The position numbers and the translations under genes were made by a program. The notes beneath the pieces were generated by a model. That model was not told the origin of the DNA. It was given only the letters and a program-made list of their open reading frames with translations, and did not search any database. From the IMG/VR virus record IMGVR_UViG_3300032241_002220, positions 25,376 through 89,375 of that record: a DNA stretch of 64,000 nucleotides. One strand, written 5' to 3'. Of the stretch, positions 10,715 to 37,136 are shown in pieces; the stretch's first letter is position 1, and the number at the start of each line of letters is the position of its first letter. This stretch comes from a virus. Taxonomy: Duplodnaviria > Heunggongvirae > Uroviricota > Caudoviricetes.

Positions 10715-11004
10715 CGATGCTCATAAAGTAACATTTGGTGTAAGAAAAAAAGGTCAAGCACAAAAAAGTTACAATAAGCATACACCCCGCCCTAAAGCTT
10801 ACAGAAGACAAGGTAGATAATTATGGAAAATATAAGAAAATTCACGGCTTTAGAAGTATTTATGTCTATGCCTGATGATTTACTGGTTGCTATGTTACAA
10901 AGAGACCCAGAAGGTATACAGATAATGTGCCTCGCTCTGGGGATCGAGCTAAGTAATGCCAAAAATGTAGAAAAAATTGAATTTTTTACACCTCTCGCGT
11001 GAGA

Positions 11005-11087
11005 AATGTAATCTCTCGCAAAAAAACGAAAAAGAACGTGGCTACCGTAAGGTAGCTTCGTATATTTACGTATAATAAAATTAAAAC
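11005..11087 (+). promoter_or_regulatory. compound promoter (two CTCTCGC boxes + GCTACC-GTAA-GGTAGC hairpin + -7 TATATTTACG)
   Basis: AATGTAATCTCTCGC box. GTAA-tetraloop hairpin immediately 5' of the -7 element. ATG 11088. Confidence 0.55.
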
Positions 11088-16918: not shown

Positions 16919-16972
16919 AATAAATTTGGAGGAGCAAATAAATATTTATATCATAACCAAAAACATTAAATT

Positions 16973-17673: not shown

Positions 17674-17915
17674 CCGAAGATAATATTCGTCCAAATAAAT
17701 TTGAGATGCGTTATGAAAATAACGATTCAACAGAGGTATGGAAGTATGATTTGAATAAAAATCCTACTGGTCCTATTGAGGTGATAATCGAATATAAAAA
17801 AGATGTTGTTAAGAATTGGGGAAATAAACTAAAAGAAGCCAAAGCACAGAAAAAAGTGGCTAAGCAAATGAAACAAATTCAATCTAAATCAAAGAAAAAT
17901 GTCCGCAACAAGTAA
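17652..17915 (+). CDS. hypothetical small basic protein
   Basis: 87 aa ORF. Confidence 0.35.
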   Translation: MRGRPPVTEDNIRPNKFEMRYENNDSTEVWKYDLNKNPTGPIEVIIEYKKDVVKNWGNKLKEAKAQKKVAKQMKQIQSKSKKNVRNK

Positions 17916-18108
17916 ACATTATGGTGATGTAGGTATATGGATTGAAAAGATTATTGAATCTTGTAAAACTATAGAACAAGCAAATAATTGTTATACATTA
18001 GTCCATTCATTTTATAAAAAATATCACCAACATAGTGTATATAATCATTTGTATTTTTTAATGGAAAATAAATATAACGATTTATTACATCAAAAATACA
18101 AATTATAA
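17899..18108 (+). CDS. hypothetical small protein
   Basis: 69 aa ORF. Confidence 0.35.
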   Translation: MSATSKHYGDVGIWIEKIIESCKTIEQANNCYTLVHSFYKKYHQHSVYNHLYFLMENKYNDLLHQKYKL

Positions 18109-18128
18109 ATAGTTAACATTTATCGCGC

Positions 18129-18225
18129 GATAAATACAATCTCTCGCGGGTCTTTCGCAAATCTTCATAAAAAATGTGGAGAAGCGAAAGGCCCGTCGTA
18201 TATTTACGTAAATAAAAATAAAAAC
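18129..18225 (+). promoter_or_regulatory. compound promoter: conserved box ATAAATACAATCTCTCGCGG + 11-bp hairpin enclosing the -33 element + -7 TCGTATATTTACGTAAATAAAA
   Basis: GGGTCTTTCGC...GCGAAAGGCCC inverted repeat flanks AAAATGTGGAG. Core motif 20 nt before ATG 18226. Preceded by the 12-bp palindrome TATCGCGCGATA. Confidence 0.6.
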
Positions 18226-18459
18226 ATGACATTTAATTTCACATTTAAGACAGATGAAGAATATGAAGTAAAAAGAGACTCTACTACTTTTTTTGATTAT
18301 AATATAGTAAGAATGATAGTGCAACTAGAAGATGGTAGTACATTAGATTTCCCTTGCCATTCTCAAGAAGATTATGAAAATTGTTCCAAAAGATGGGAAG
18401 GTAGAATCATTGATGTATATGAAGCTGAACACTACTATGAAATGATGTTCGAATATTAA
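18226..18459 (+). CDS. hypothetical protein
   Basis: 77 aa ORF with a conserved promoter 20 nt upstream. Confidence 0.5.
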   Translation: MTFNFTFKTDEEYEVKRDSTTFFDYNIVRMIVQLEDGSTLDFPCHSQEDYENCSKRWEGRIIDVYEAEHYYEMMFEY

Positions 18460-18461
18460 AA

Positions 18462-18517
18462 ATAAGTTTGGTTACCTAAAAAACAGTTCGTATATTTACG
18501 TAAATAAAAATAAAAAC
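18462..18517 (+). promoter_or_regulatory. Bacteroidetes-type promoter (TTTGGTTACCTAAAAAAC-N-TTCGTATATTTACGTAAATAAAAATAAAAAC)
   Basis: -33 TTTGG, 19-nt spacer, -7 TATATTTAcg. ATG 18518. Confidence 0.65.
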
Positions 18518-18832
18518 ATGGCAAAATTATCAAACCAAAGTACAAACGGAACATCATTCCATAGCGACACAGTTACATGCTCTTTAAATGATTTGATAGC
18601 AATAATAGGTAAACCTGTACGTTGTTTCGATGATAAAGTAAATTTTGAATGGACATGCGAAACAGATAAAGGAGATGTATTTACAATTTATGATTGGAAA
18701 GAATATCGTAGTATTCCAGAAAATCAAAACATAGAATGGCATATCGGAGGACACAATTGGGGTGTTACATACCAAGCCAAAATTGAATTAAACGATATGC
18801 TTTATCTAGCTACTAAAGAAGGTAAAATCTAG
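18518..18832 (+). CDS. hypothetical protein
   Basis: 104 aa ORF with a conserved promoter upstream. Confidence 0.5.
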   Translation: MAKLSNQSTNGTSFHSDTVTCSLNDLIAIIGKPVRCFDDKVNFEWTCETDKGDVFTIYDWKEYRSIPENQNIEWHIGGHNWGVTYQAKIELNDMLYLATKEGKI

Positions 18833-19184
18833 ATAATGGATATAAAAGTAGGAGATAAAATCATATTCAAAAATTCTAAAAAAGATGAAGAATATGAAGT
18901 AGCAAAAATAGAAGGTGGATTGATTTGGTATAAAATTAAATACGGAATAGGTCAAACAATAGAATCAAGTATTGAAAAAGTTATTAAACCGAAAAAAAAG
19001 TTTATAAAATGAAAAAGTATAAAGTAGCTTTACTAAATTCATTAGGTGAAACGGTGTTAGAACATTATTTACTAGCAGCAAATGATGAATCAGCAAGAGT
19101 CAAATGTGAAATACTAGTAAAAGAAGCTAAAGATAATTCAGTTGTTGGATATAAATTGTTAAACTAAAAATAAAATTTTATAAA

Positions 19185-19529
19185 ATGGGATTAGATACAT
19201 CACACAATGCATGGCATGGACCTTATAGTTCATTTAATTCGTGGAGAACATTAATTTGTGAAAAAGCCGGATTAGGTTACCTTAGAAACTATATTGGTTT
19301 TGAAGGTGAAAAACAATGGGATGAAAATCATCCATTAGTACCACTATTAAACCATTCAGATTGTGACGGTGAAATTAAATGGGAAGATTGTAAAGGTATA
19401 GCCGTTGCTTTAACTGAAATACTACCTAAATTAGAACCAGAAGATTTGTATAATATTGGTAAAACAGAGGATTTTATTAATGGTTGTATAGATGCTTATA
19501 AGGCACAAGAAAACATTGACTTTCACTAA
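19185..19529 (+). CDS. hypothetical protein
   Basis: 114 aa ORF. Confidence 0.45.
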   Translation: MGLDTSHNAWHGPYSSFNSWRTLICEKAGLGYLRNYIGFEGEKQWDENHPLVPLLNHSDCDGEIKWEDCKGIAVALTEILPKLEPEDLYNIGKTEDFINGCIDAYKAQENIDFH

Positions 19530-19764
19530 AAACAAATATATGCTAAATTTTATTAAACGAAACAAGAAAAGTAACCCAATGCCACCAATGACATTTACAA
19601 CAGTTCATCCGGATACTACTCTAAATTTAGATGAATGGAAACAACATTTGAATGTTAGTGGTAAATTTACATATTTGGAAGATTCAGAATGGCTCCAAAA
19701 AGTAAGAAAAAGAGAAAATCTTTTTGCAAAAACTTGGAAACCCGAAGATGAGTTAGTATGTTGA
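19492..19764 (+). CDS. hypothetical protein
   Basis: 90 aa ORF; start uncertain. Confidence 0.35.
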   Translation: MLIRHKKTLTFTKNKYMLNFIKRNKKSNPMPPMTFTTVHPDTTLNLDEWKQHLNVSGKFTYLEDSEWLQKVRKRENLFAKTWKPEDELVC

Positions 19765-19803
19765 TAGGGTATTAAATAAGTAATCAAATAAAAAGTTATA
19801 GTT

Positions 19804-20037
19804 ATGAGTTATCAAACTAAGGTACGTGCGAATTACCTTAACCGCACAAGTAAATTGTCATTTTTTACAGCCCGCCAACGTCAAGGAGATGTTAATCGTA
19901 TTGCTGAAAACACTGGTTATTCAACCTCCCACATCAGCAATGTATTAGCTGGTCGTCGTTCAGTTCCAGCACCTATGGCTAATGAAATGTATAACATTAG
20001 CCGACGTAGAGAAAAAAATAGCGAAATTTTTGCTTAA
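19804..20037 (+). CDS. hypothetical protein, possible HTH DNA-binding
   Basis: 77 aa. Followed by a GC hairpin terminator. Confidence 0.4.
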   Translation: MSYQTKVRANYLNRTSKLSFFTARQRQGDVNRIAENTGYSTSHISNVLAGRRSVPAPMANEMYNISRRREKNSEIFA

Positions 20038-20052
20038 TTCTTTTCGAAAAAA

Positions 20053-20116
20053 TCGCTATTAGTATTTGGAGGAGCAAAAGCTCCTCCTTATTTTTACCTA
20101 AATAAAACATATAAAA
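20053..20116 (+). promoter_or_regulatory. terminator/promoter hybrid: TTTGG + GGAGGAGC-AAAA-GCTCCTCC hairpin + TTATTTTTACCTAAATAAAAC
   Basis: Perfect 8-bp GC hairpin followed by a T-run (terminator for the 19804 gene) overlapping a promoter-like motif for ATG 20117. Confidence 0.5.
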
Positions 20117-20302
20117 ATGTCAAACAATAACAGCACAAGTAACAGATTAGGATTAGGAACAATATTATTCCTCATATTCCTTATTTTAAAATTAACCAAT
20201 TTAATAACATGGAGTTGGTGGTGGGTATTTTCACCTATTTGGATACCTATTGTAGTATTAGGATTTATGGTATTATTATTACTAATAAAAAATCTACTAT
20301 AA
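20117..20302 (+). CDS. small membrane protein
   Basis: 61 aa with two hydrophobic helices (LGTILFLIFLIL...WIPIVVLGFMVLLLLI). Confidence 0.45.
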   Translation: MSNNNSTSNRLGLGTILFLIFLILKLTNLITWSWWWVFSPIWIPIVVLGFMVLLLLIKNLL

Positions 20303-20562
20303 TGAAGATATTGAGACCAGAGGTATTAAATTATATCTATACACAAACACCAGGTGGTTTGTTTCAGATATTTGATCAGATATATATGCAAGCCCTAAAC
20401 ATAACACCAGATGAATTAGATATTTTAGCCGAAAAAATGAATGATGATGAATTGGAAGATTGGTCACGGTTAACTCAAGAACATCTTCCATTCAGTAAAA
20501 GAAGACAAATAATCAAATTTAGAAACAAACACTTAAATTATTTCTATGAAAAAAGTATATGA
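20302..20562 (+). CDS. hypothetical protein
   Basis: MKILRPEVLNYIY... internal start of track ORF 20209..20562; chosen to avoid overlap. Confidence 0.35.
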   Translation: MKILRPEVLNYIYTQTPGGLFQIFDQIYMQALNITPDELDILAEKMNDDELEDWSRLTQEHLPFSKRRQIIKFRNKHLNYFYEKSI

Positions 20563-20731
20563 GTATTTAGCAGTGGCTTTGGCATTGTTTGGTATGTATA
20601 ATTTATTTACATTAACCGAAGGATGGATACATGGTAAACCAGTAGATGTAGCCAAAGTATGGATATGTGGCGGTTCTACTATTTTAGTATATATAATCAA
20701 TAAAATACTAGAAAAACAAAATAGAAAATAG
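20546..20731 (+). CDS. small membrane protein
   Basis: 61 aa, hydrophobic. Confidence 0.4.
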   Translation: MKKVYEYLAVALALFGMYNLFTLTEGWIHGKPVDVAKVWICGGSTILVYIINKILEKQNRK

Positions 20732-20744
20732 TTGGTTGTTTAAA

Positions 20745-20780
20745 ACAAGGGTTGTATATTTACAACACGGAAAAAATAAT
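20745..20780 (+). promoter_or_regulatory. promoter-like variant (GGTTGTATATTTACAACACGG)
   Basis: ATG 20781. Confidence 0.35.
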
Positions 20781-21464
20781 ATGAAACTAATACTAAATAA
20801 AGGACAACGACTCTGGTTTACGAGCGATACACACTACAACCATTCAAATATCTGTTCAGCTACTACAAAGTGGACTGATGCCGAAGATATGACTCGTGCT
20901 TTTAATTCATTGGAAGATATGAATAAAACATTAGTTGAAAATATAAATTCATGTGTTGAAGTAAATGATGTTTTGATTCATTTGGGCGATTGGTCTTTTG
21001 GTGGTTTTGATATGATTGAAGAATTTAGAAAACAAATCAAGTGCAAAAACATTCATTTGATACTAGGTAATCACGATAATCATATCCAAAACAACAAGAA
21101 TAACGTACAATCTCTGTTTAGTTCTATTCACGAATATTTGTATTTGGATTTGAGAATACCAGCTGGAAAAGAAGTAAACAAATTTAGAATGGTTTGTATG
21201 CATTATCCTCTAGCTAGTTGGAACGGAATGAATGATGGTGTTGTTCACCTTCACGGACACGTTCATCTTCCTAAAGATCTTAGAGTGGCTAAAGGTAAAG
21301 CAATGGATGTTGGTGTTGACGGAAACGATCTATACCCAATTGAATTGTTTCAAATATTGAATATTATGAAAACACAACCGGTTATGAGCTTGTCATTGCC
21401 AAAAGATCATCACGTTAAAAGAGTAGCACCAGTTGAAGAAAAAGGAGGACATTATGGATGTTAA
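20781..21464 (+). CDS. calcineurin-like metallophosphoesterase
   Basis: FTSDTHYNH...HLGDW...LGNHDNH motifs. Start set at MKLILNK after the promoter-like TGTATATTTACA. Confidence 0.6.
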   Translation: MKLILNKGQRLWFTSDTHYNHSNICSATTKWTDAEDMTRAFNSLEDMNKTLVENINSCVEVNDVLIHLGDWSFGGFDMIEEFRKQIKCKNIHLILGNHDNHIQNNKNNVQSLFSSIHEYLYLDLRIPAGKEVNKFRMVCMHYPLASWNGMNDGVVHLHGHVHLPKDLRVAKGKAMDVGVDGNDLYPIELFQILNIMKTQPVMSLSLPKDHHVKRVAPVEEKGGHYGC

Positions 21465-21846
21465 TAAATTAGAAGAATTCCTTAAAAGTGAAGAAGGACA
21501 ACGTTCTATGGATAAATGGGTTATGGATCTTGTAAATAAAAAAGAACATCTAAAACGTTGGGTTGAAAAGTTTAAAAAGTGGGCAGAACCAAATATAGAT
21601 GCTGCTTTAGAAATACTAATCACCAAATATGACTCTTCAGAATATGTTAAACGAGAATATAAAATCGGATATGAACCAAGAGAAGAATTTCTTTGGTTAG
21701 CTTTCGAGTATGCTAGAATATATTGTAAACCTTGTGAAGATGAAAAATATTTTAATATGTTTACAGGAGAGGCTTATTATATAGGTTCATATGTAATTCA
21801 ATCAATGCATGGTCAAGGTTCTGTTATAAGAATTGATAAAATATAA
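21433..21846 (+). CDS. hypothetical protein
   Basis: 137 aa ORF. Confidence 0.45.
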   Translation: MKKKEDIMDVNKLEEFLKSEEGQRSMDKWVMDLVNKKEHLKRWVEKFKKWAEPNIDAALEILITKYDSSEYVKREYKIGYEPREEFLWLAFEYARIYCKPCEDEKYFNMFTGEAYYIGSYVIQSMHGQGSVIRIDKI

Positions 21847-21856
21847 AATTAAAACA

Positions 21857-22279
21857 ATGGATAAAATATTATATCTTACAAGAGGTCTTCCAGGATCTGG
21901 AAAAACAACTCTGGCTCATCAATTAACAAATTCACATTCTATTTGTGAAGCAGATAAATTCTTCTATGATAAAGAAGGTAATTATAATTGGGATGGAGAT
22001 AAACTAAATGAGGCTCATAATTGGTGTGTAAGTGAAGTTAAAGTTCGAATGATGGATAATGCTAGAAATGAACAATTTTATCCTATAATAGTTGTTTCAA
22101 ATACTTTCACTATGGAAAGTGAAATGGAGCCTTACATAGAACTAGCTAAAAAATATGGTTATATAGTAATTTCATTAATATTGGAAAATAGACATGGCTC
22201 TGTATCAAAACATAACGTTCCTATTAAATCTTTGAACAAAATGGAACAAAGATTGCGACAAAATATAAAACTTCGTTAA
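21857..22279 (+). CDS. P-loop nucleoside/polynucleotide kinase-like protein
   Basis: Walker A LTRGLPGSGKTTLA at the N-terminus. Size and layout resemble Pnk-type kinase domains. Confidence 0.5.
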   Translation: MDKILYLTRGLPGSGKTTLAHQLTNSHSICEADKFFYDKEGNYNWDGDKLNEAHNWCVSEVKVRMMDNARNEQFYPIIVVSNTFTMESEMEPYIELAKKYGYIVISLILENRHGSVSKHNVPIKSLNKMEQRLRQNIKLR

Positions 22280-22282
22280 AAA

Positions 22283-22337
22283 AGTTTGGAGGGGCGAATA
22301 CCCCTTCGTACATTTATGTAAGTAAAAATAAAAACAT
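22283..22337 (+). promoter_or_regulatory. promoter: TTTGG + GGGGCGAATACCCC hairpin spacer + TACATTTATGTAAGTAAAAATAAAAAC
   Basis: The hairpin sits in the spacer between -33 and -7. ATG 22338. Confidence 0.6.
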
Positions 22338-23171
22338 ATGATATTAAACCTAGCATATCCTGAAGATTCTCAGGTAAATTTTCAAATATCTCAATTTCCA
22401 GATGGGCAACAATCTTTAACTATCCTTTCAGGTGTAGGACCTGAGGATTGTATTATTATAGGTTCCCATTTAAATTCATTTAAAGATTTAGAATTAATAA
22501 TCTGTGCCAATGTGGCTTTAAAAGAAATGGGAGTTAAAAATATTGAATTGTATGTTCCTTATTTTCTAGGTGCTCGTTCAGATAGGAAATTTGGTGAAGG
22601 TGGATTTAACTATTTAAAAACTGTTATTTGCCCTATAATCAATTCTCAAAATTTTAGTAAAGTAATAGTTTTAGACCCACATTCAGATGTACTTGAGGCT
22701 TGCTTAAATAATTTTGAAAAAAGAAGCAATATAGGAGTTGTATCTCATGCTCTTCAAGGCATTGATGCTGAAAAAGAAGATACAGTAATTATATCTCCTG
22801 ATGCCGGTGCATTAAAAAAGATATACGATATTGCTAAGGTATTTGACTTACCAAATGTAATTACAGCAGGTAAGGTTAGAGATATTCCAACAGGTAAAAT
22901 ATTAAAAACTGAATTGCCTAATATTACTCAATTTGAAGGTAAGAAATTCCTTATCATAGACGATATTTGCGATGGAGGTAGAACGTTTATTGAACTAGCG
23001 AAAGCAATTAAAGAACAACTCCCTGATGCTGAATGTTATTTATGTGTTACTCATGGTATTTTTAACCAGGGATTTGATGAATTATCAACTTATTTTAAAA
23101 AAATCTATTGTACAAATAGTGTAAAAGATTTTAATTGGAAACCTTTTATTAATCAACTAAATGTATTTTAA
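22338..23171 (+). CDS. ribose-phosphate pyrophosphokinase-like (PRPP synthetase family)
   Basis: 277 aa. YVPYFLGARSDRK resembles the Prs PYFGYARQDR motif. FLIIDDICDGGRT is a PRPP-binding loop. Confidence 0.6.
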   Translation: MILNLAYPEDSQVNFQISQFPDGQQSLTILSGVGPEDCIIIGSHLNSFKDLELIICANVALKEMGVKNIELYVPYFLGARSDRKFGEGGFNYLKTVICPIINSQNFSKVIVLDPHSDVLEACLNNFEKRSNIGVVSHALQGIDAEKEDTVIISPDAGALKKIYDIAKVFDLPNVITAGKVRDIPTGKILKTELPNITQFEGKKFLIIDDICDGGRTFIELAKAIKEQLPDAECYLCVTHGIFNQGFDELSTYFKKIYCTNSVKDFNWKPFINQLNVF

Positions 23172-23173
23172 TT

Positions 23174-23599
23174 ATGGACTTAACAAATAAATACGTTACC
23201 CGTCTTAGGAAAGAGTGGGAACAATATGGAAAAATTATAGTTGCAGTAGACTTTGATGACACTATTTCTCCTTGGAAATTTTCAAAAGAAGAACTTCAAG
23301 ACACAGTAGACTTAGTAAAAGAAGTACAACAAACCGGAGCTTATATTGTTATATTTACAGCCTGTTCTCCAGATAGATATGAAGAAATTTCATCTTATGT
23401 TAATTCTTTAGGTATTAAAGTAGATGCTATCAATCAAACACCAATAGAGATACCTTATGGTAATCATAATAAAATCTATGCCAATATCTTTTTAGATGAT
23501 CGCGCAGGACTTGAAGAAGCCAAAAAAATATTGCGAGAATGCATGTATCTTCAAAGAAGCTTTAAAAGATCGCAAATTACTTTGGACGAAGTTGGATAA
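23174..23599 (+). CDS. HAD-like hydrolase (DxDxT)
   Basis: IVAVDFDDTISP motif near the N-terminus. Confidence 0.35.
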   Translation: MDLTNKYVTRLRKEWEQYGKIIVAVDFDDTISPWKFSKEELQDTVDLVKEVQQTGAYIVIFTACSPDRYEEISSYVNSLGIKVDAINQTPIEIPYGNHNKIYANIFLDDRAGLEEAKKILRECMYLQRSFKRSQITLDEVG

Positions 23600-23657
23600 A
23601 AATTTGGCTACCTCAAACATTAGTCGTATATTTACGTAAATAAAAAATTAAAAAATT
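23600..23657 (+). promoter_or_regulatory. Bacteroidetes-type promoter (TTTGGCTACCTCAAACATTAGTCGTATATTTACGTAAATAAAAAATT)
   Basis: ATG 23658 (nadV). Confidence 0.65.
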
Positions 23658-25202
23658 ATGTTTAAACCAGTTAGTTTATTTTACACAGACGGATATAAGA
23701 TTGGCCACAAGAAAATGTTAGCCCCAGGAACTACAAAATTATATGGTACTTGGATTCCTCGTAGCACAAAATATGCTCCTACCGGTGTTACAAAAATAGT
23801 ATCGTTTGGTCAACAGCTTGTAGTTCGTTGGTTAAATGATGAGTTTACAGAACATTTTTTCAACCAACCAAAATCAGTAGCAACCCAATTTGGTAAAGAT
23901 ATGTCAATGTATCTTGGAATGGATTATGATGCTACCCATTTTGAAGCACTTCATGATTTAGGTTATTTACCTATTCGAATCAAAGCATTACCAGAAGGTA
24001 TTGAAACATTACCTAATGTTCCTCATATGACATTCATCAATACAGTAGATGGTTTTGCGTGGTTAACTTTATATTTGGAAACGATTATATCTTCATTAGC
24101 TTGGAAACCTTCAACATCAGCCACTATTGCTCTACAATATCGTAGGAATTTAGTTCAATGGGTTATGAAAACAGATCCGGCTAACGCGTGGTTGATTCCT
24201 TTCCTCGCACACGATTTCTCTGCTCGTGGTTTATCTCCTTGGGACATGTTATCAAGCGGTTTAGGACATGCTACTTCGTTTAGAGGTTCTGATACCATTA
24301 TTTGTATTCCTGGTGCTCGTTATTTTTATAATGAACCTGAAAATGAAGTTTGTATCAATTCGGTAAATGCTTCTGAACATAGCGTTTCAACAACTAAAAT
24401 CTTTACAGTTGGTGAACAACAAATGATTGCAGATTGGTTGGTTGATTTTCCTAAAGGAATATTATCAATTGTATCAGATACGTTTGATTTGTGGAAGTTG
24501 ATTACCGAATACTTACCTGCAAACAAAGAAGCAATCATGGCTCGTGATGGTAAGTTGGTTATCCGTCCTGACTCTGGTGATCCGGTTGATATTATTTGTG
24601 GGTTAAACACTAAAACTAAGGTTGAATATTTTCAAAATGCTGATGCTCCAGATGTTAAAGGTGTAATCGAATTACTTTGGGAAATCTTCGGTGGTACAAT
24701 CAACGAACAAGGTTACAAAGTTCTTGATCCACACATCGGAGCCATTTACGGTGACTCAATTACATTGGAACGTCAAATTCAGATTTATGAAAGGTTAGCG
24801 GCTAAAGGTTTTGCTTCAACTAATATTGTACTCGGTGTTGGTTCTTATACATACCAAATGAATACTCGTGATACTTTAGGTTTTGCTGCTAAAGGTGCCT
24901 GGTTTGAAGTTGAAGAAGAATACGATGCCACTCCAGAAGAACATGGAGAACCAGTTGTTGATTTTTATATACCTGGATTTAATAAAATAGGTTACGACAT
25001 CTACAAAGATCCAGTAACCGATTCAGGTAAAACAAAGAAATCTTTGAAAGGTCTTATCATGGTAGATGAAAATCTTGAAGTACACACCCAATGTACACCT
25101 CAACAAGAGGCTCAAGGTTTATTACAAACCATTTATATGGATGGTAAATTCTACAATCAAACAACATTAACTGAAATTCGCGCTAAACTTGAAAAGCTAT
25201 GA
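23658..25202 (+). CDS. nadV: nicotinamide phosphoribosyltransferase
   Basis: 514 aa. N-terminal LFYTDGYKIGHKKM...TKLYGTWIPRS matches the NAMPT/NadV signature. Size fits. Confidence 0.8.
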   Translation: MFKPVSLFYTDGYKIGHKKMLAPGTTKLYGTWIPRSTKYAPTGVTKIVSFGQQLVVRWLNDEFTEHFFNQPKSVATQFGKDMSMYLGMDYDATHFEALHDLGYLPIRIKALPEGIETLPNVPHMTFINTVDGFAWLTLYLETIISSLAWKPSTSATIALQYRRNLVQWVMKTDPANAWLIPFLAHDFSARGLSPWDMLSSGLGHATSFRGSDTIICIPGARYFYNEPENEVCINSVNASEHSVSTTKIFTVGEQQMIADWLVDFPKGILSIVSDTFDLWKLITEYLPANKEAIMARDGKLVIRPDSGDPVDIICGLNTKTKVEYFQNADAPDVKGVIELLWEIFGGTINEQGYKVLDPHIGAIYGDSITLERQIQIYERLAAKGFASTNIVLGVGSYTYQMNTRDTLGFAAKGAWFEVEEEYDATPEEHGEPVVDFYIPGFNKIGYDIYKDPVTDSGKTKKSLKGLIMVDENLEVHTQCTPQQEAQGLLQTIYMDGKFYNQTTLTEIRAKLEKL

Positions 25203-25597
25203 AAGAACAATTTGTTACATACGAAATAGCTATAATCTTAAAAGAAAAAGGGTTTAATGAAGATTGTTTAGGTGTATATATCGATAAAGAATTAACTATA
25301 GGTTTACCGGAAACTACATTAAATGTAATTACTAAATATTATGATATTCTTGAAAAAGAAGAATATTTATTAGCTCCATTATGGCAACAAGCAATTGATT
25401 GGTTTAGAGAAAAACATCGTTTTATTATAACTATAGATTTTTTAAACAAACAAGAATCATTACACCCTAACGATCCAGAATGGACATCAGAATTATATAA
25501 TATGGATAACTTTCATTATATCATAGCTGAATACGATAGATACTCATACGAAGACGCAAGACAAGTAACTATTGAACATGCCTTAACATTGATTTAA
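25199..25597 (+). CDS. hypothetical protein
   Basis: 132 aa ORF. Confidence 0.45.
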   Translation: MKEQFVTYEIAIILKEKGFNEDCLGVYIDKELTIGLPETTLNVITKYYDILEKEEYLLAPLWQQAIDWFREKHRFIITIDFLNKQESLHPNDPEWTSELYNMDNFHYIIAEYDRYSYEDARQVTIEHALTLI

Positions 25598-25662
25598 TAT
25601 GGTAATAAAAATCTTTATAGCAATAGTAGTAACACTTATACTTTTACCTAATTTTAAAAAAA

Positions 25663-26799
25663 ATGGAAAATAACAATAGCGTTTGCTTCATAGCAAAAAT
25701 AAACGAAATAAAAGAAATACCGGGAGCCGACAATATCGAACAGGCAATGGTAGGCAACTGGTCTTGCATCATCAAAAAAGGAGCTTATGCTGAAGGTGGT
25801 TTAGTGGTTTGTGCTACTACAGACGCTGTTATACCTGAAGACTTGGCCGAAAAGATGAACGTAACAAACTACTTACGTAAGGGCAACCGTGTGCGTACAG
25901 TAAAGCTTCGTGGTGTTTATTCCGAGTGTTTGGTTATACCTTTTGAAATCGGAGACGTTATGACTAAAGACGAGTTACACGAAGGTAAAGACATGATGGC
26001 TATATTGGGTATTATAAAGTTTGAACCTCCCGTAAAGCAAATTCAACTCGCTTCAGGTAAAAAGATACGCTATAGTGAAAATCCAAATTTTCATATATAT
26101 TATAAATTTCCAAATCTTAAAAACGTATCATGTATGTTTACAGAAGAGGACTCGGTTCAAATCACACGCAAGATACACGGCACTTCATCTAGGTATGGTA
26201 TAGTGAAAAAGAATAAATTATCTTTTTGGGATAAATTCAGAAAGTTCTTTAGGATAGCTAATGAATGGATTGATTACGAGTTTGTAGTAGGTTCACATAA
26301 CGTTGAAAAGGGATCCGATTCTCAAGGTTTCTATGATACAAATGTTTGGTATGAAATAGCCAACAAATATAAGATCAAAGAAAAGCTTTGGGATTATGTA
26401 AAAAAGTATATGTCTTTAGAAGAACTAGGTTCTGGTGTTGTAATATATGGTGAAATCTATGGAGCCGGTATTCAAAAGGGTTATGATTATGGTCTTAAGG
26501 ATATTCAATTTGCTGGATTTGATGTTATGGAAAATGGGCAATATTTGAGTGCATTTAATACTCTTCTTGTTTTAAAATGTATGATAGATTTACCTCATGT
26601 CCCTGTATTATACGATGGTCATTGGTCTCAAGAAATTCAAGATAAGTATGTATTTAATAACTTTATTGAAGGTACAAAAGTACCACACGAAGGTATTGTT
26701 ATCAAGCATACTTCAGGTAATCGTTTTAAAGTCGCAAAAGTGATTAATCCAGACTATTTAATTTATGGAGAAAAACATGATATAGGAGACTCACACTAA
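25663..26799 (+). CDS. Rnl2-family RNA ligase
   Basis: 378 aa. Nucleotidyltransferase motif I RKIHGTSSRYG (T4 Rnl2 has EKIHGTN). GEIYGAGIQKGYDYG parallels Rnl2 GEFAGPGIQKNVDY. Confidence 0.75.
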   Translation: MENNNSVCFIAKINEIKEIPGADNIEQAMVGNWSCIIKKGAYAEGGLVVCATTDAVIPEDLAEKMNVTNYLRKGNRVRTVKLRGVYSECLVIPFEIGDVMTKDELHEGKDMMAILGIIKFEPPVKQIQLASGKKIRYSENPNFHIYYKFPNLKNVSCMFTEEDSVQITRKIHGTSSRYGIVKKNKLSFWDKFRKFFRIANEWIDYEFVVGSHNVEKGSDSQGFYDTNVWYEIANKYKIKEKLWDYVKKYMSLEELGSGVVIYGEIYGAGIQKGYDYGLKDIQFAGFDVMENGQYLSAFNTLLVLKCMIDLPHVPVLYDGHWSQEIQDKYVFNNFIEGTKVPHEGIVIKHTSGNRFKVAKVINPDYLIYGEKHDIGDSH

Positions 26800-26809
26800 A
26801 ATTAAGGTT

Positions 26810-27148
26810 ATGTACAGAAAAGATGGTGAACGTGATATGCGTTTTAAAGAAAACAAGGATTGGGCTAGCGGTTTAACAATGCTAGCCTATATCCTTATAA
26901 TAGGGGTTGTATTATATTTAGGTTGGCAAGGTATATTTAAATTATTTTCAAATCGAAAAAATGATGATAGGCCTTTAATAGTAGCCGGTATTCATAGTTT
27001 GATTTTAATAATCATATTTGTGTGTGGATTTGTTACTGACGGAGATACACAAAAATGGTTTATCGGCGCTTTTGTATATTCTATTATGCATAGTATTATA
27101 TTTACGTTAATTGGGTTTGTACTTAATATGGTAATTAAAGATAAATAA
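26810..27148 (+). CDS. membrane protein
   Basis: 112 aa, three predicted TM helices. Confidence 0.45.
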   Translation: MYRKDGERDMRFKENKDWASGLTMLAYILIIGVVLYLGWQGIFKLFSNRKNDDRPLIVAGIHSLILIIIFVCGFVTDGDTQKWFIGAFVYSIMHSIIFTLIGFVLNMVIKDK

Positions 27149-27160
27149 CTACTATTGCGC

Positions 27161-27251
27161 AGATAAATACAATCTCTCGCGGATTTTTTTACAAAAAACG
27201 TGGAAAAGCGTAAAACCCGTCGTACATTTACGTCAATAAAGAATTAAGGTT
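27161..27251 (+). promoter_or_regulatory. compound promoter (box ATAAATACAATCTCTCGCGG + hairpin + -7 TACATTTACG)
   Basis: Same architecture as 18129. CGGATTTTT...AAAACCCG inverted repeat around ACGTGGAAAAG. ATG 27252. Confidence 0.6.
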
Positions 27252-27575
27252 ATGAAACAATATACAATAGAAGAAATCCGCAATTACATTAAATCTCAAG
27301 ACAGTTTAGGTGATGTATTATACAACTTAACAGAGGAAAAAATAGACGAAGCCAACAAAGTGATAGAAATAGTTGGCTGTTTAGAGACTGTAGATAATTG
27401 GGGTAGAGAAGAACAATATGACGCCCAAGAAACATATAAGTTACTAACTAACCCCGATGAATGGACTGATGATCAAAGATTTTATGATGAATGTAATAGA
27501 TGTTTCTTTATTGAAGAATTAATTGGTAAAAAAATTAAAGTAGGTCCATTTACCTTTACCTTAACCGAAGATTAA
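27252..27575 (+). CDS. hypothetical protein
   Basis: 107 aa. Conserved box + promoter upstream. Confidence 0.5.
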   Translation: MKQYTIEEIRNYIKSQDSLGDVLYNLTEEKIDEANKVIEIVGCLETVDNWGREEQYDAQETYKLLTNPDEWTDDQRFYDECNRCFFIEELIGKKIKVGPFTFTLTED

Positions 27576-27589
27576 TATAATATTATTTG

Positions 27590-27638
27590 GTTATTTAAAA
27601 ATAAATTCGTACATTTACGTAAATAAAAAATTAAGGTT
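27590..27638 (+). promoter_or_regulatory. promoter (TTCGTACATTTACGTAAATAAAAAATTAAGGTT)
   Basis: ATG 27639. Confidence 0.55.
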
Positions 27639-28046
27639 ATGAATAAAATTACACTACAACAACAACTCGAAGCATTTGATAAAGGAATCATTTTAGATTT
27701 TGATGGTAATGTAGATGAAAATTATAATTTTTATGATTGGTTTTGTAAAAGAACCTCACTAAAAGCAAAATCGGAAAAACTTTTTAAAATAGTAAAACGT
27801 TGGGCTAAAAATAAAAATATAGATACTACTAAGTTCTATTGTTTTTTTAAAAATAACTGCCCTCTTAACGGACCATTATACGATGATTTTAGAATATGTG
27901 ATATTGAAACAGGTGACGTTATGTGGACTGTAATTCCTAAAAGTGGATTTACAAATCAAGCAGAAATTTGGGGTTATCCAAACGATTTTAAAGGCCCTAT
28001 TGTTACAGGTAAAAATATGAACGAAATCTTTAAACAATCCTTTTAA
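27639..28046 (+). CDS. hypothetical protein
   Basis: 135 aa. Conserved promoter upstream. Confidence 0.5.
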   Translation: MNKITLQQQLEAFDKGIILDFDGNVDENYNFYDWFCKRTSLKAKSEKLFKIVKRWAKNKNIDTTKFYCFFKNNCPLNGPLYDDFRICDIETGDVMWTVIPKSGFTNQAEIWGYPNDFKGPIVTGKNMNEIFKQSF

Positions 28047-28047
28047 T

Positions 28048-28425
28048 ATGAAATTTGAATCAGGAAAAGAATACGCTAAAGCATTAGTTAATGGTATAGT
28101 ACAATCCGAATCAGAAACACCAGCCGAATCAAGGATTCCAGATGAATTGTTGGAATATTTTTTCAAAAATATTGAAGATTTATGTGATCAAAAATATTAT
28201 AATTACATAGTTGGTGCCGTTGAAAGTTATATTTTAACAGATACAGAATTGGAAGAAGCGTTTAATAGTGCTAACCAATCATATATTGAAGTAATATTAG
28301 ATGGTTTGGTTGATAAAAATATGCTTGAAGTTTCTGTTGGTGAAGGTGGAGATATACTTTATGGTTTAACTCCTCAAGGTGAACAAGTTGTTAAAAAACT
28401 AAATCAAAATCCTTTGGAAAATTAA
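28048..28425 (+). CDS. hypothetical acidic protein
   Basis: 125 aa ORF. Confidence 0.45.
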   Translation: MKFESGKEYAKALVNGIVQSESETPAESRIPDELLEYFFKNIEDLCDQKYYNYIVGAVESYILTDTELEEAFNSANQSYIEVILDGLVDKNMLEVSVGEGGDILYGLTPQGEQVVKKLNQNPLEN

Positions 28426-28464
28426 AATATTAGTCGTACATTTACGTTAATAAAAAAATAAAAC
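28420..28464 (+). promoter_or_regulatory. promoter (GTCGTACATTTACGTTAATAAAAAAATAAAAC)
   Basis: ATG 28465. Confidence 0.55.
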
Positions 28465-28692
28465 ATGCTCGAAGGTAAAAAAGTAAATTGGGGTAAAAAA
28501 CAAGAAATAGCTGTTGCTACTGCTGAAACAAAGAAATCAGGTACCACAGTTAAAGTATCTAAGCTAATAGATAAACTAGAGGAGTTTCTAGCACTATCTG
28601 AAATAGCTTATGAAAATAAACCAACATCGGAATTATATGGTGTTATTACCTCTACTAGAATTAATTTAGCAGAATTAAATAGATTAAACTAA
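28465..28692 (+). CDS. hypothetical protein
   Basis: 75 aa. Conserved promoter upstream. Confidence 0.45.
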   Translation: MLEGKKVNWGKKQEIAVATAETKKSGTTVKVSKLIDKLEEFLALSEIAYENKPTSELYGVITSTRINLAELNRLN

Positions 28693-28697
28693 ATCAT

Positions 28698-28976
28698 ATG
28701 ATAGTAATATTATTAATTGCCTTATACGTAGCATGCGTTTTGTATATGCGAAATTGGATTAAAATAGCTCATTCTAAAGATAGAAGATTTAAAATAGCTC
28801 ATTCTAAAGATGGAATATTTAGTAATTTAGATGTGGAGTTTATGGATTTCTTTTATACATTTATGCCTATAGCTAATACAGTATGTTCTTTTGTATTTTT
28901 CTTTATATCACCTTATGAAAATAAGCCATATAGAAAACCGATTAATTATAATAAAATTTTTGGAGTTAAAAAATAA
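28698..28976 (+). CDS. small membrane protein with internal tandem duplication
   Basis: 92 aa. KIAHSKDRRF/KIAHSKDGIF duplication encoded by a 26-bp tandem repeat. Confidence 0.4.
   Translation: MIVILLIALYVACVLYMRNWIKIAHSKDRRFKIAHSKDGIFSNLDVEFMDFFYTFMPIANTVCSFVFFFISPYENKPYRKPINYNKIFGVKK
28772..28823 (+). repeat. 26-bp direct tandem duplication
   Basis: AAAATAGCTCATTCTAAAGATAGAAGAT / TTAAAATAGCTCATTCTAAAGATGGAATAT inside the CDS at 28698. Confidence 0.6.
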
Positions 28977-28982
28977 AAGAAT

Positions 28983-29204
28983 ATGACAACACTATTAGTA
29001 ATCGTACTGTACGTTTTAAATGTACTATTGAATCGCTGGATGTATTTTGTACTGTGTAAACACGATGATGATTGGTATCCGAATCCGCCTTTTATATTTA
29101 CCCTGTTTCTCGGTCCTCTCGGAACAGTTGTAGTAGGCATGTTTTTATTAAATTATGCAAAAAATTCATTTTTTACACCACCTCACTTAAGAGATAAAAA
29201 ATAA
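28983..29204 (+). CDS. small membrane protein
   Basis: 73 aa, two TM helices. Confidence 0.4.
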   Translation: MTTLLVIVLYVLNVLLNRWMYFVLCKHDDDWYPNPPFIFTLFLGPLGTVVVGMFLLNYAKNSFFTPPHLRDKK

Positions 29205-29409
29205 AGTTATGAAAAATACCATTATATATTTATTATTGTTTTTTGTAATATTATATCTATTATTTGCTTTTGTGATTAATGATTTTAATTTTACAAAATG
29301 GAGTGAAGAAGCAAGGTTTGGTGTAGCAGCAATTTGGGCATGTTTTACTCCTCTTATAATTGTTTTTGTAAAAGACCATAATTTGTAAAAAACCATAAAA
29401 AATAAAGTT

Positions 29410-29646
29410 ATGAAAAAGATATTATCAATATTATTACTAACGAGTTTAGTAACATCGTGTGGACCAGGAACTTCACTTAGAGATACCTCAAACTATGAAA
29501 TATTAGTCGGCTCGGGAAATTCTATGGTGGTTTATTTTACAAATTCATATACCTTGGATTCAAACAAATGCATTTCGTTTAACGCTTTAGACGAAGGTGG
29601 GTTGGTTAAAATTTGTGGAAGTTATACCCTTTTAACGCTTAAATAA
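29410..29646 (+). CDS. putative lipoprotein
   Basis: MKKILSILLLTSLVTSC signal + lipobox. Confidence 0.45.
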   Translation: MKKILSILLLTSLVTSCGPGTSLRDTSNYEILVGSGNSMVVYFTNSYTLDSNKCISFNALDEGGLVKICGSYTLLTLK

Positions 29647-29663
29647 AATAAAACAATAAAGTT

Positions 29664-30704
29664 ATGTCGATTATTAAACAAGGTAGTCAATACACATTTG
29701 CTGATATCACTGCTAGTTATGAAGTACTGCCTAAGGGAGTGTATTTGATGAAACAGGATCAACAGGGAAACTTCTACCTAACACAGAAAGAGGATTTCGT
29801 TATGCCTAAAAAAATCTATGGCGATCATTCCATCACTAAACGTTGGTTGAAGTCATATAATGAGAACTCTGAAAAGAATATGGGTATTATCTTATCTGGT
29901 ATTAAAGGTTCGGGTAAAACCATTACTGCACAACAGTTTTGTATTCAATCAGGCTTACCAGTTGTTATTATTAATGAACCTTTCTCAGGACAGAATTTTG
30001 TTGATTTTTTAACAAACCCTAAACTTGGTAAATGCGTTATTTTCATTGATGAATTTGAAAAGATATATCCTGATAGTGGTAGGGATTCAACTAACGCAAA
30101 CGAGTTGTTGTCTTTGATGGACGGTAACTTCGCAACGCGCCTTATATTTTTACTTACTGTTAACGAGTTCAGGATAAACGAATACCTTGTAAACCGATTA
30201 AACCGTATCAAGTACCGTAAACACTACGAAGATTTAGATGAAAGCGTGGTTAGTGAAGTAATAGAGGATTTGCTTATAAACAAAGCACATACCGACTCCA
30301 TATACCAATTCTTTGATAGGATAAATATGTGTACTTTTGATTTGCTAGTTAATATAATCAAGGAAATGAACTTATTTGGTGAAGATGCTATATCATGTGG
30401 TAAACATCTAAACCTAAAAAGCGAAAATAAGTATTACGAGGTATTTGAAATATTTAAAGGTAAAGAATATCCATGCAATACTATAAATATGTGTGCTGGT
30501 GAAACTGAATTAGAAATTGAAAGAACAACAACTAATTATCTACCAGAACCTGATAAAGATTACCATTATATAACAATATCATTGATAGATTATCCACTTA
30601 AGAAATTATCAAATAAAACATCTATATTAAAAGCTAAAGATGTTGATGGTAAAGATGTGGAATTTAAATTAAAAGCACGTAGTTTTAATACTATGGTATT
30701 TTAA
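29664..30704 (+). CDS. AAA+ ATPase
   Basis: 346 aa. Walker A GIILSGIKGSGKT, Walker B VIFIDEFEK. Confidence 0.6.
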   Translation: MSIIKQGSQYTFADITASYEVLPKGVYLMKQDQQGNFYLTQKEDFVMPKKIYGDHSITKRWLKSYNENSEKNMGIILSGIKGSGKTITAQQFCIQSGLPVVIINEPFSGQNFVDFLTNPKLGKCVIFIDEFEKIYPDSGRDSTNANELLSLMDGNFATRLIFLLTVNEFRINEYLVNRLNRIKYRKHYEDLDESVVSEVIEDLLINKAHTDSIYQFFDRINMCTFDLLVNIIKEMNLFGEDAISCGKHLNLKSENKYYEVFEIFKGKEYPCNTINMCAGETELEIERTTTNYLPEPDKDYHYITISLIDYPLKKLSNKTSILKAKDVDGKDVEFKLKARSFNTMVF

Positions 30705-30711
30705 TAAGAAT

Positions 30712-30877
30712 AGTCAGGTGGCGGAATGTTAGACGCTATTAATCTTTGTTTTTAGTTCAGACGGATAGGCAAACGTAACATAAGACAGTGGAATATATTC
30801 TAGGATACGAAAGCCAAAGTTACTAGACAAACTGTTAAAAAAAATCTGAACGTGTGGGTTCAAGTCCCACCAGAATG
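30712..30877 (+). ncRNA. tRNA-like element (class II tRNA 5' acceptor/D-arm ... T-arm) with about 110-nt intervening sequence; not a foldable tRNA
   Basis: AGTCAGGTGGCGGAATGTTAGACGC is a canonical Leu/Ser-type acceptor + D-arm. GTGGGTTCAAGTCCCAC is a canonical T-arm 140 nt downstream. No 3' strand complementary to the acceptor. Confidence 0.3.
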
Positions 30878-30912
30878 GCATGAATTAAAAGCTAAAATAG
30901 AAAAATTAGAAA

Positions 30913-31356
30913 ATGAAAATGAAAACATATCAAGGTAAAATAAGGAATTTAGAACCAAACCAAGTATTTTGTTTTGGCTCTAATCCACTCGGAATTAACG
31001 GTTCGTTAAGAACTGGTAAGGGTGGATCAGCTTTATTTGCCTTAAAAAAAGGTTGGGTTAGACAAGGTGAAAGAATGAATAATTGTTTATCTTCTTGTGG
31101 TAAAGCATGGGGTATAGTCACCGTGACTGGACCTGGAAAGAAAAAATCTAAAACTCCGGAACAAATACAAGCGAATATATTAAAATTATATAGACATGCA
31201 GAAGCTAATTTTGGACAAGAGTTTTTAATTGCTTATACTGGAATTAACAATTATAATTTAAATGGGTATTCTAATAAAGAATTAGCAAAAATGTTTTCAA
31301 CTTTTCCAATACCTGATAATATAGTATTTGAAGAAGAATTCAGCACATTATTATGA
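30913..31356 (+). CDS. hypothetical protein
   Basis: 147 aa ORF. Confidence 0.45.
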   Translation: MKMKTYQGKIRNLEPNQVFCFGSNPLGINGSLRTGKGGSALFALKKGWVRQGERMNNCLSSCGKAWGIVTVTGPGKKKSKTPEQIQANILKLYRHAEANFGQEFLIAYTGINNYNLNGYSNKELAKMFSTFPIPDNIVFEEEFSTLL

Positions 31357-31445
31357 GCACCAAAATATACAATGCCGTTAGAATATCTAAAAAACTAGAT
31401 AAAGAAGCAAAAAGTGGGATGAATTAAAATTAAAAATACAACAAT

Positions 31446-31637
31446 ATGAGTGAAGTATTAACAGAATTACTAAAACAACGACAAGATGCTCAAAACAAAC
31501 TATACCAATTGGGTAAAGACGCAGTGCATCAACAACATGAAATAGCAGAAACTATCAAATCAATTGATAAAGCTATTACATCCATAAGCAATCATTCAGA
31601 GTACGATAAAGAATATGACGAAGATATTCACGATTAG
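31446..31637 (+). CDS. hypothetical coiled-coil protein
   Basis: 63 aa ORF. Confidence 0.35.
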   Translation: MSEVLTELLKQRQDAQNKLYQLGKDAVHQQHEIAETIKSIDKAITSISNHSEYDKEYDEDIHD

Positions 31638-31644
31638 TGAAATA

Positions 31645-31747
31645 GATATAATCTCTCGCGGGTTTTGTGTAAATCTCTATAAAAAGTTTGGAGAAACATA
31701 AAACCCGTCGTACATTTACGTCAATAAAGAAATAAAAAATAAACAAA
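31645..31747 (+). promoter_or_regulatory. compound promoter (box ATAATCTCTCGCGGG + hairpin + -7 TACATTTACG)
   Basis: CGGGTTTTGTG...CATAAAACCCG inverted repeat around AGTTTGGAG. ATG 31748. Confidence 0.6.
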
Positions 31748-32008
31748 ATGATACACGAATTAAAAACATTACCACAATATTTTCATCGAGTTTTCACAGG
31801 TGAAAAAACATTTGAAATACGTAAAAACGACAGAGATTTCCAAACAGGGGATGTATTACTTTTACAAGAATATCTACCAGAAGATGAAATATACAGTGGT
31901 CAAACAATCCGTGCTTCAGTAACCTATATCTTACAAGGTGGACAATTTGGAATTGAGCCGGGATATTGCGTTTTAGGAATCAAAGTATTTGGTGTAAATA
32001 AAAAATAA
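31748..32008 (+). CDS. ASCH/PUA-like small protein
   Basis: 86 aa. FEIRKNDRDFQTGD resembles the ASCH/DUF3850 motif. Conserved box + promoter upstream. Confidence 0.4.
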   Translation: MIHELKTLPQYFHRVFTGEKTFEIRKNDRDFQTGDVLLLQEYLPEDEIYSGQTIRASVTYILQGGQFGIEPGYCVLGIKVFGVNKK

Positions 32009-33321: not shown

Positions 33322-33399
33322 TATAGTATGTGGAAGTTATATGGCGGAACGTGGAGATGGTGATTTTCGCGGAGATAACCCTTTTTCCTCGCGCATCCA

Positions 33400-33486
33400 A
33401 CCACCTCCGATCGATAAAGTATATACGAGAATCGCGTGGAAATGCGATTTTCTTGTCGTATATTTACGTCAAATAATAAAAAACAT
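33400..33486 (+). promoter_or_regulatory. promoter with AATCGC-GTGGAAAT-GCGATT hairpin over the -33 region + -7 TATATTTACG
   Basis: Same hairpin-over--33 architecture. ATG 33487. Confidence 0.5.
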
Positions 33487-34139: not shown

Positions 34140-34213
34140 AAATAGTTTGGTTACCTGAAGAAATGGTCGTAGATTTAACACATAATAATAATAACAATAA
34201 AAATAAAACAGTT

Positions 34214-37083: not shown

Positions 37084-37136
37084 AAATGTGTGGAGGAGCG
37101 AAAGCTCCTTCGTATATTTACATAAATAAAAAGCTT
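37084..37136 (+). promoter_or_regulatory. promoter: TGTGG + GGAGGAGC-GAAA-GCTCCTTC hairpin + TATATTTACATAAATAAAAAGCTT
   Basis: GNRA-loop hairpin in the spacer. ATG 37137. Confidence 0.55.

Follow-up and report, generated by a model that had tools for sequence, protein, structure and literature searches.

Why would hairpins be built over promoters, and what is the conserved box that precedes some of them? These questions are raised by a 64,000-nucleotide stretch of viral DNA (Caudoviricetes; positions 25,376-89,375 of IMG/VR record IMGVR_UViG_3300032241_002220), the whole of which is referred to as the window and numbered from its first letter. An earlier sequence-only reading had described, at four to five promoters, a 20-nt box followed by an inverted repeat. 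Sequence analysis and comparison of relatives, on which our whole reading is based, suggest that the hairpins are terminators laid over the next promoter, that the promoter cassettes are patches for recombination, and that the box is an operator. We give this combined reading slightly better than an even chance. Its hairpin and cassette-exchange parts, taken alone, are probable, whereas the case for the operator, taken alone, is evenly balanced. For convenience, loci are named by their approximate position (11k, 18k, 27k, 31k, and 33.4k).

Promoter cassettes, their hairpins and their exchange

The boxes belong to a context that the sequence-only reading had missed, a promoter cassette with about 23 members that serves as a recombination linker. 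Each cassette is composed of an A-rich tract, the -33 element TTTGG, a 17-nt spacer, the core TCGTAYATTTACGT, and an A-rich leader that runs to the ATG. The core contains an inverted repeat (CGTA..TACG) and is matched within three mismatches at 19 sites, all on the + strand, against 0.66 expected. A repeat finder groups 17-19 copies of the cassette, and the number comes to about 23 when weaker copies are counted. The copies precede small open reading frames (ORFs), metabolic genes, and transfer RNA (tRNA) clusters, and none lies in the structural-gene block after 47 kb. We infer that the repeat is a promoter family of the early/middle region. Its motif resembles the Bacteroidota consensus (-33 TTTG / -7 TAHHTTTG; PMC6847099), with A at -5 where that consensus has a G that is nearly invariant in Flavobacterium johnsoniae (PMC6847099). 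The motif is carried by 62 fetched loci of related phages, and the exact 21-mer TCGTATATTTACGTAAATAAA (core with leader) is present in 20 IMG/VR contigs (L001-L020). Family-wide, the -33 element reads TTGG in 85 cases and GTGG in 8. Two Logan contigs of the same phage (L241 and L242, ERR2848514) start 46-298 nt before genes driven by a cassette; the promoter repeats seem to be points at which short-k assemblies break.

Hairpins ending at the -7 box are found at nine of the 23 window promoters. The large hairpins at 18k and 31k consist of a 13-bp outer stem, an AAA internal loop, and an inner stem of 6-8 bp, about 21 bp in total, closed by a loop of 5-9 nt. The final paired base of both is the T of TCGTA. 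Their folding free energies (dG) are -34 and -27 kcal/mol, with z scores of -6.0 and -5.4, respectively. The -33 element had been placed in the hairpin loop, but at 18k and 31k it sits in the 3' arm of the inner stem; at 18k this is a GTGG (18176-18179), and the 3' end of the hairpin abuts the -7 box. The inverted repeats themselves are larger than first described at these two sites (tiers of 13 + 8 bp), and the one claimed at 27k does not form a stable hairpin (z -0.4). The 27k sequence up to 27219 holds only a decayed hairpin, with the 3' arm GCGTAAAACCCG intact and the inner 5' arm missing. This copy resembles one of the 31k type that has lost the inner 5' arm.

The 18k and 31k hairpins have 19 pairs in common. 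Both partners differ in four of these and one partner in three, where G.U preserves the pairing; no pair is broken. The 55-nt segments show 13 differences, and 11 of them fall in pairs. The + strand of both hairpins folds more stably, by 6-10 kcal/mol (-32 on the + strand vs -22 on the - strand at 18k; -24.5 vs -18.6 at 31k), and it is also the more stable strand in 16 of 20 hairpins of the family. G.U pairs stabilise the + strand, and the promoter's own transcript starts downstream, indicating that selection acts on sense-strand read-through RNA from the upstream gene. Among the 90 unique promoters from all loci, 17 have a hairpin with dG <= -12 kcal/mol that ends within 4 nt of the core TCG, compared with 1.2 (maximum 3) in shuffled sequences.

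The hairpins with GNRA-type loops that had been reported in the spacers of other promoters are present, at 37092-37111 (GAAA loop) and 11040-11057 (GTAA), with others at 20068-20087 (AAAA) and 22288-22307; further hairpins lie at 2671-2700 and 33427-33452. We group those at 37092, 20068, 22288, and 2671 as a spacer-hairpin class. In relatives, the hairpin at this position is often of the plain terminator type, followed by a T-run that fills the spacer and with the -33 element in the loop or an arm, as in L017 (TGTGGCCTCC-GTTT-GGAGACCACA-TTTTTTTTT-CG), L018 (GGGGTGGC-TTT-GCCACCCC-TTTTT-CG), L054, L048, and L232. Window hairpins have TCGTAYATTTA as the corresponding tail. In a terminator scan, the T-rich rule is satisfied by the hairpins at 20068 and 11040 and failed by those at 18k and 31k. 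Ordinary canonical terminators are also present in the window (41991, 46812, and 48452). We infer that the cassette hairpins serve as terminators or insulators and are superimposed on the next promoter. They would act in the read-through RNA of the upstream gene, and space would be saved by building them over the -33 element and the unconstrained spacer of the following promoter, so that they end exactly at the -7 box. The sequence-only reading had proposed a terminator or attenuator of read-through, a role that now gains support from the compensatory changes, the sense-strand stability, and the T-runs in relatives.

Two other functions of the hairpins have to be weighed. The large two-tier hairpins could be 3' stabilisers or processing sites of the RNase III type, at which polycistronic read-through RNA would be cut between genes in the manner of T7 early RNA. 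In favour of this, the stem comprises 21 bp, about two helical turns, divided into two helices by a small internal loop; no U-run follows it, and its stability is specific to the sense strand. However, relatives have plain terminators with hairpin and T-run at the same position, and RNase III would require longer stems than the 6-8 bp of the window's spacer hairpins, two of which meet a simple terminator rule; we therefore think processing rather improbable. Alternatively, the hairpin could act in DNA, as a cruciform that hides the -33 element or as a hairpin promoter like those read by the virion RNA polymerase of phage N4. The inverted repeat does cover the -33 element and the spacer, but on the opposite strand the G.U pairs become C.A mismatches at a cost of 6-11 kcal/mol, most promoters of the family have no hairpin, and no phage RNA polymerase is seen in the window. 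In addition, N4 promoter hairpins have stems of 5-7 bp and 3-nt loops. A role in DNA is thus extremely improbable, and action in RNA as a terminator or insulator is preferred to both.

Near relatives from metagenomes are mosaics of the window, with junctions within the cassettes (L184, L218, L226, and L227). In L227, a crossover within the 32 nt of core common to both joins the 27k cassette to the 31k gene. ORF 27252-27575 is missing from L184 and four other contigs; the junction in L184 is in the core, and the 27k cassette would drive the next gene. Both L184 and L218 have the 31k box and 5' arm, followed past TTTGG by a different spacer and gene, so that the hairpin is lost. L218 also links window position 35.4k to 28.7k. 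In L226, the gene upstream of the 27k box is followed by the box, and a crossover within 21 shared nt (GATAAATACAATCTCTCGCGG) then leads into the 18k hairpin and gene. The order in this contig (930 bp, JGI 3300043550) is 26810-27148, box, 18226-18459. It could be the junction of a circle of about 9 kb or of a tandem duplication between the 18k and 27k boxes, or equally a variant gene order. Assembly chimeras are unlikely, because the repeats of 20-32 nt are shorter than the k-mers of common assemblers, although the contigs of 739-930 bp could be chimeric. The junctions are spread over the box, the -33 element, the core, and the leader, which fits short-patch homologous recombination and not a site-specific system. 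The ORFs flanking recombinant cassettes are mostly without an assigned family. Comparison of the relatives thus indicates that the cassettes are short homology patches at which small ORFs are exchanged, gained, and lost.

The upstream box

The box at 18k, 27k, and 31k is real, with two exact copies and one with two mismatches, displaced by 1-3 nt from the positions first given (Table 1). No match is found in shuffled sequence. Two degenerate copies had also been proposed. The one at 11k holds, with 15 of 20 positions and a second CTCTCGCG at 10991, 21 nt upstream; the one at 33.4k shares nothing beyond the core CTCGCG at 33388 and lies 15-25 nt further from its promoter than the other boxes. 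The distance to the ATG, proposed as about 75 nt, is 70-87 nt from the end of the box and 89-106 nt from its start. On its other side, the box begins 4-21 nt past the stop codon of the upstream gene. The hexamer CTCGCG occurs six times on the + strand, five of them upstream of promoters, and never on the - strand. The 12-bp palindrome reported near the 18k box, TATCGCGCGATA, is present at that copy only and overlaps the box by 3 nt.

Among the three main copies, the box is identical at 18-20 of 20 positions, compared with about 60% identity in the adjoining stem arms. A weaker hTCGCG repeat lies 21-22 nt upstream at each site, and two exact TCGCG pairs have this spacing, against 0.003 in shuffled sequences. 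The box thus has two traits of an operator, a sequence conserved above its flanks at several promoters and repeat symmetry. No conserved RNA fold was found within it; a small RNA hairpin inside the box was rejected as weak, with broken pairs and no compensatory change. GTGG replaces TTGG at -33 in four of five box sites and in one of 18 other promoters (Fisher p = 0.0027; 0.021 without the 33.4k site).

The box would then be a lineage-specific primary-sequence element, composed of a strongly conserved proximal repeat and a degenerate repeat 21-22 bp upstream, and a putative DNA operator that marks off four to five promoters for a sequence-specific regulator. Since the -33 element of these promoters is the sub-optimal GTGG, an activator is likelier than a repressor, and a box that accompanies a weakened upstream promoter element matches what would be expected of an activator-dependent promoter sub-class. 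It is a more speculative and, in our view, unlikely extension that the box is the operator of a phage factor redirecting host RNA polymerase to GTGG promoters, as a temporal switch evolved for the divergent Bacteroidota sigma-A. The functional counterpart of such a switch is the appropriation of sigma by MotA/AsiA at T4 middle promoters.

Table 1. Coordinates of boxes, hairpins, and promoters in the window.
Feature	Position	Strand	Details
Degenerate bipartite box, 11k	10990..11021	+	CCTCTCGCG 10990-10998 + AGAAATGTAATCTCTCGCAA 11002-11021 (15/20); period 21
11k promoter	11038..11071	+	-33 GTGG 11038-11041; spacer hairpin GGCTACC-GTAA-GGTAGCT 11040-11057; core 11058-11071
Box copy 1, ATAAATACAATCTCTCGCGG exact	18130..18149	+	degenerate distal repeat ATCGCG 18122-18127 within palindrome 18121-18132
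18k two-tier hairpin	18146..18196	+	outer arms 18146-18158/18184-18196; AAA 18159-18161; inner arms 18162-18169/18175-18182; loop 18170-18174
18k promoter core TCGTATATTTACGT (-7)	18196..18209	+	upstream of ORF 18226-18459
Box copy 2, ATAAATACAATCTCTCGCGG exact	27163..27182	+	distal degenerate repeat ATTGCG 27154-27159
27k promoter	27200..27233	+	-33 GTGG 27200-27203; core TCGTACATTTACGT 27220-27233; ORF 27252-27575
Box copy 3, ATAGATATAATCTCTCGCGG, 2 mismatches	31642..31661	+	
31k two-tier hairpin	31658..31708	+	outer arms 31658-31670/31696-31708; inner arms 31674-31679/31689-31694; -33 TTGG 31688-31691
31k promoter core TCGTACATTTACGT	31708..31721	+	upstream of ASCH/DUF3850 ORF 31748-32008
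Doubtful fifth site, 33.4k	33366..33393	+	TTCGCG 33366 + CTCGCG 33388, 22 nt apart; only core shared
33.4k hairpin and promoter	33427..33469	+	GAGAATCGCGT-GGAA-ATGCGATTTTC 33427-33452 enclosing -33 GTGG 33436-33439; core 33456-33469
Box-less promoter, representative of spacer-hairpin class	37092..37123	+	GGAGGAGC-GAAA-GCTCCTTC 37092-37111; core 37110-37123

Searches elsewhere gave the box a narrow range. It has no match in Rfam or in isolate phages, and exact and degenerate scans of IMG/VR returned no real copy. A metagenome scan gave 120 loci, of which L184 and L218 alone are relatives and the rest are chance 16-mer matches. A profile of the 30-nt box (nhmmer) found nothing in 100 loci of more distant relatives, whose RNA ligase is 64-92% identical, and no further box is present in the 7.9 kb upstream of the window (L240). 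Several candidates were rejected. L232 and L235 have only ATCTCTCGC beside the -33 element in common with the box, the CTCGCG of L243-L245 sits within an ordinary terminator stem, and the best outside match (L155) is a chance match in the coding sequence of sigma-70 region 4.2 (DKYNLSR). The boxes are not part of duplicated genes, as the flanking genes upstream and downstream are unrelated to one another. An antisense promoter on the - strand, in the reverse complement of the box, was also discarded, since by eye only seven of 14 positions match the phage core.

Several observations weigh against the combined reading. The presence of the 27k box without a stable hairpin, together with the loss of the 31k hairpin in relatives, indicates that the hairpin is dispensable there. 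Neither the two large hairpins nor the spacer hairpins with GNRA loops lead into a clean U-run; the sequence after them is UCGUAUAUUUA, the -7 box. The distance from CTCGCG to the TGG of the -33 element (23, 24, 33, 33, and 48 nt) is not fixed. Its step of 9-10 nt looks like the deletion of the inner 5' arm in the 27k copy and not like selection for helical phase; an argument from phase (23-24 vs 33 nt) was dropped because the 27k copy resembles a 10-nt deletion of that arm. The three main cassettes align as paralogues over about 95 nt with 62-79% identity (repeat family D5). Common descent or gene conversion could therefore account for the shared box, and its association with GTGG is not made of fully independent events. 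The box occurs at orthologous sites in this phage and its near relatives and is missing from the wider phage family searched, which goes halfway towards the restriction to the window that the sequence-only reading had named as counting against it. The regulator site proposed by the sequence-only reading is plausible as a primary-sequence element with a degenerate repeat and a link to a non-consensus -33, with confinement to one lineage on the other side. An argument against gene-specific regulation is that the 27k box precedes four different genes among the relatives. With A instead of G at -5, recognition by unmodified host sigma-A is not certain, and the core may need a phage factor rather than plain host sigma-A. 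Finally, the candidate binding proteins are limited to a weak HTH_31 match in ORF 19804-20037 and an AT-hook in ORF 34163-34468.

Some of these points could be accommodated by a box without a function of its own, which would be the 5' end of a longer cassette sub-family, copied to three or four places by short-homology recombination and identical through recent spread or gene conversion. The paralogy over the whole cassette, crossovers within the box and along the entire cassette, and the restriction to one phage lineage are consistent with this, and the relatives, at 87-100% identity, are too close to reveal purifying selection. However, the neighbouring stem arms have fallen to about 60% identity and evolve by compensation while the box has not, the core is retained at 11k within otherwise unrelated sequence, along with a second repeat of the same 21-nt period, and the box is linked with the rare GTGG. 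We consider a box without function somewhat unlikely. A box acting in RNA, as a single-stranded site in the 3' untranslated region of the upstream gene for an RNA-binding protein or endonuclease (antitermination, processing, or stability), would explain why every copy is on the sense strand shortly after a stop codon, why the final bases GCGG make the base of the hairpin, and why the upstream gene is constant and the downstream gene varies. Linkage to the upstream gene is expected anyway, however, if crossovers fall in the shared promoter core. In addition, the box persists at 27k and 11k without a large hairpin, overlaps the terminator stem by just 4 nt (GCGG), has neither a conserved fold nor compensatory changes nor an Rfam match, and is associated with a -33 variant that points to promoter function; an RNA site is thus rather improbable. 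A dedicated cassette recombinase acting at the box is disfavoured, as the crossovers are scattered over the whole cassette. Of these possibilities, the operator in DNA is the one we retain.

Host and genomic setting

The window belongs to a large phage; its G+C content is about 30%, and essentially every plausible gene is on the + strand. The genes include nucleotide-metabolism enzymes, an RNA ligase, a baseplate J-like protein, 21 tRNAs, and a transfer-messenger RNA (tmRNA). A nucleotide similarity search against sequenced phages gave no match, and the sequenced relatives are distant protein matches only, to Flavobacterium phages (35% identity), one Microcystis phage, and one uncultured phage. 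A metagenomic scaffold (L228, ERZ28594341) is 100% identical to window 16571-28459. One phage ORF has a CHU_C sorting domain, which belongs to type IX secretion and is Bacteroidota-specific, and another has a T5orf172 domain, related to GIY-YIG (ORFs 35414-35737; 38847-39311). The CHU_C domain, the promoter type, and the distant Flavobacterium phage matches point to a member of Bacteroidota as the host.

Three relatives (L021-L023) have about 93-96% nucleotide identity to window 20776-26800. In these, the counterpart of window 1-3103 sits about 2.8 kb downstream of the RNA ligase gene, whereas in the window itself it lies about 22 kb upstream of that gene. The difference may reflect a large rearrangement or a different permutation.

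The tRNAs lie at 34525-34607, 42030-45153, and 47036-47121 (21 by ARAGORN and three extra tRNA-like Rfam matches at 42030-42102, 44169-44241, and 44720-44787). The cluster contains three copies of the promoter cassette (42531, 43787, and 45186) and is adjoined by an ORF with a TROVE (Ro60-like) domain (45249-46790). No Y-RNA-like Rfam match is present in the 250-nt non-coding stretch after this ORF (46780-47140). The phage-encoded tmRNA (48053-48446; ARAGORN and Rfam, 100 bits) specifies the tag peptide EDALAFVDGEFALAA and is followed by a canonical terminator at 48452-48475. G-rich non-coding tracts are present at 33270-33340 and 48940-49020 (GGGTGGGTGA-type repeats and GGGGG runs) in a genome that is otherwise 30% G+C; the former is inside the roughly 390 nt without coding sequence that precede the 33456 promoter. 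Repeated KRGRP (AT-hook) coding units are common to ORFs 34163-34468 and 35998-36190 (direct repeats D14 and D18), which are candidates for small basic DNA-binding proteins. A T4-late-like motif, TATAAATA, was rejected as a late promoter, as its seven occurrences are not positioned before late genes.

Comparison with known systems

A conserved linear box directly 5' of a transcript hairpin recalls lambda nut (boxA + boxB) and the ribonucleic antiterminator (RAT)-terminator systems. Unlike these, the box here lies upstream of its own promoter, occurs without a hairpin, and has no conserved fold, and the hairpin, where there is one, differs from a 5-bp GNRA-like boxB. No Rfam match and no N-like or BglG-like protein was found for the box/hairpin system.

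The box also resembles upstream activator sites of promoters with a weak -35 element, such as class I CAP-type sites and the T4 MotA box of middle promoters, in that a conserved box marks a subset of promoters with a non-consensus upstream element (GTGG for TTGG). As in activator sites, it is centred about 60-70 bp upstream of the inferred start, with a weaker repeat two helical turns away. The MotA box, however, replaces the -35 element at -30, whereas the box here is about 25-45 nt upstream of the -33 element with variable spacing. If the box is a true regulator site, it would offer a handle on temporal gene control in these phages.

Like intrinsic (Rho-independent) terminators, the hairpins are G+C-rich on the sense strand, lie at the end of a gene, and are followed by a T-run in relatives. 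The box-bearing copies differ in their 21-bp two-tier stem, their loop of 5-9 nt, and the -7 box in place of a U-run. A terminator hairpin over the -33 element and spacer of the following promoter would be an unusually compact design.

The closest described system is the promoter-early stem-loop (PeSL) cassettes of the T4-type phages RB49/phi1, T4/PST, and KVP40/nt-1 (Arbiol et al. 2010, PMC2839356; Comeau et al. 2014, PMC4122927). A PeSL joins a strong early promoter to a terminator stem-loop, and indel breakpoints within the cassettes and mini-circles have been reported (PMC2839356, PMC4122927). The likeness extends to a conserved early-type promoter, identified here from sequence alone, that is repeated between small ORFans (19-23 copies, + strand). 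It extends to the stem-loop joined to the promoter, which in PeSLs terminates or attenuates upstream transcription and here probably does so, judging from the comparison of relatives. Insertions, deletions, and replacements between near relatives break inside the cassettes in both systems, and the order in L226 is that expected for the junction of an excised circle, or a variant gene order. The differences are also clear. The promoter is a Bacteroidota-like -33/-7 type and not the sigma-70 -35/-10 type of T4-type myoviruses, and no T4 hallmark gene was detected in PHROG or Pfam scans of the window. The stem-loop, present in about 40% of the cassettes here, overlaps the -33 element and the spacer, while in PeSLs it is just upstream of -35. 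One sub-family here has the extra conserved upstream box, which has no described PeSL counterpart.

Transcription signals of Bacteroidota phages are poorly mapped, and the window offers a clean promoter consensus that can be put to the test; it has about 23 copies and is conserved across many metagenomic phages from freshwater. On the evidence of natural recombinants, the view that promoter/terminator cassettes act as linkers in gene shuffling would apply not just to T4-type coliphages and vibriophages but also to a phage group unrelated to them. Altogether, the comparison suggests that the system consists of PeSL-like promoter/terminator cassettes, in a new overlapping form, in a phage of Bacteroidota.

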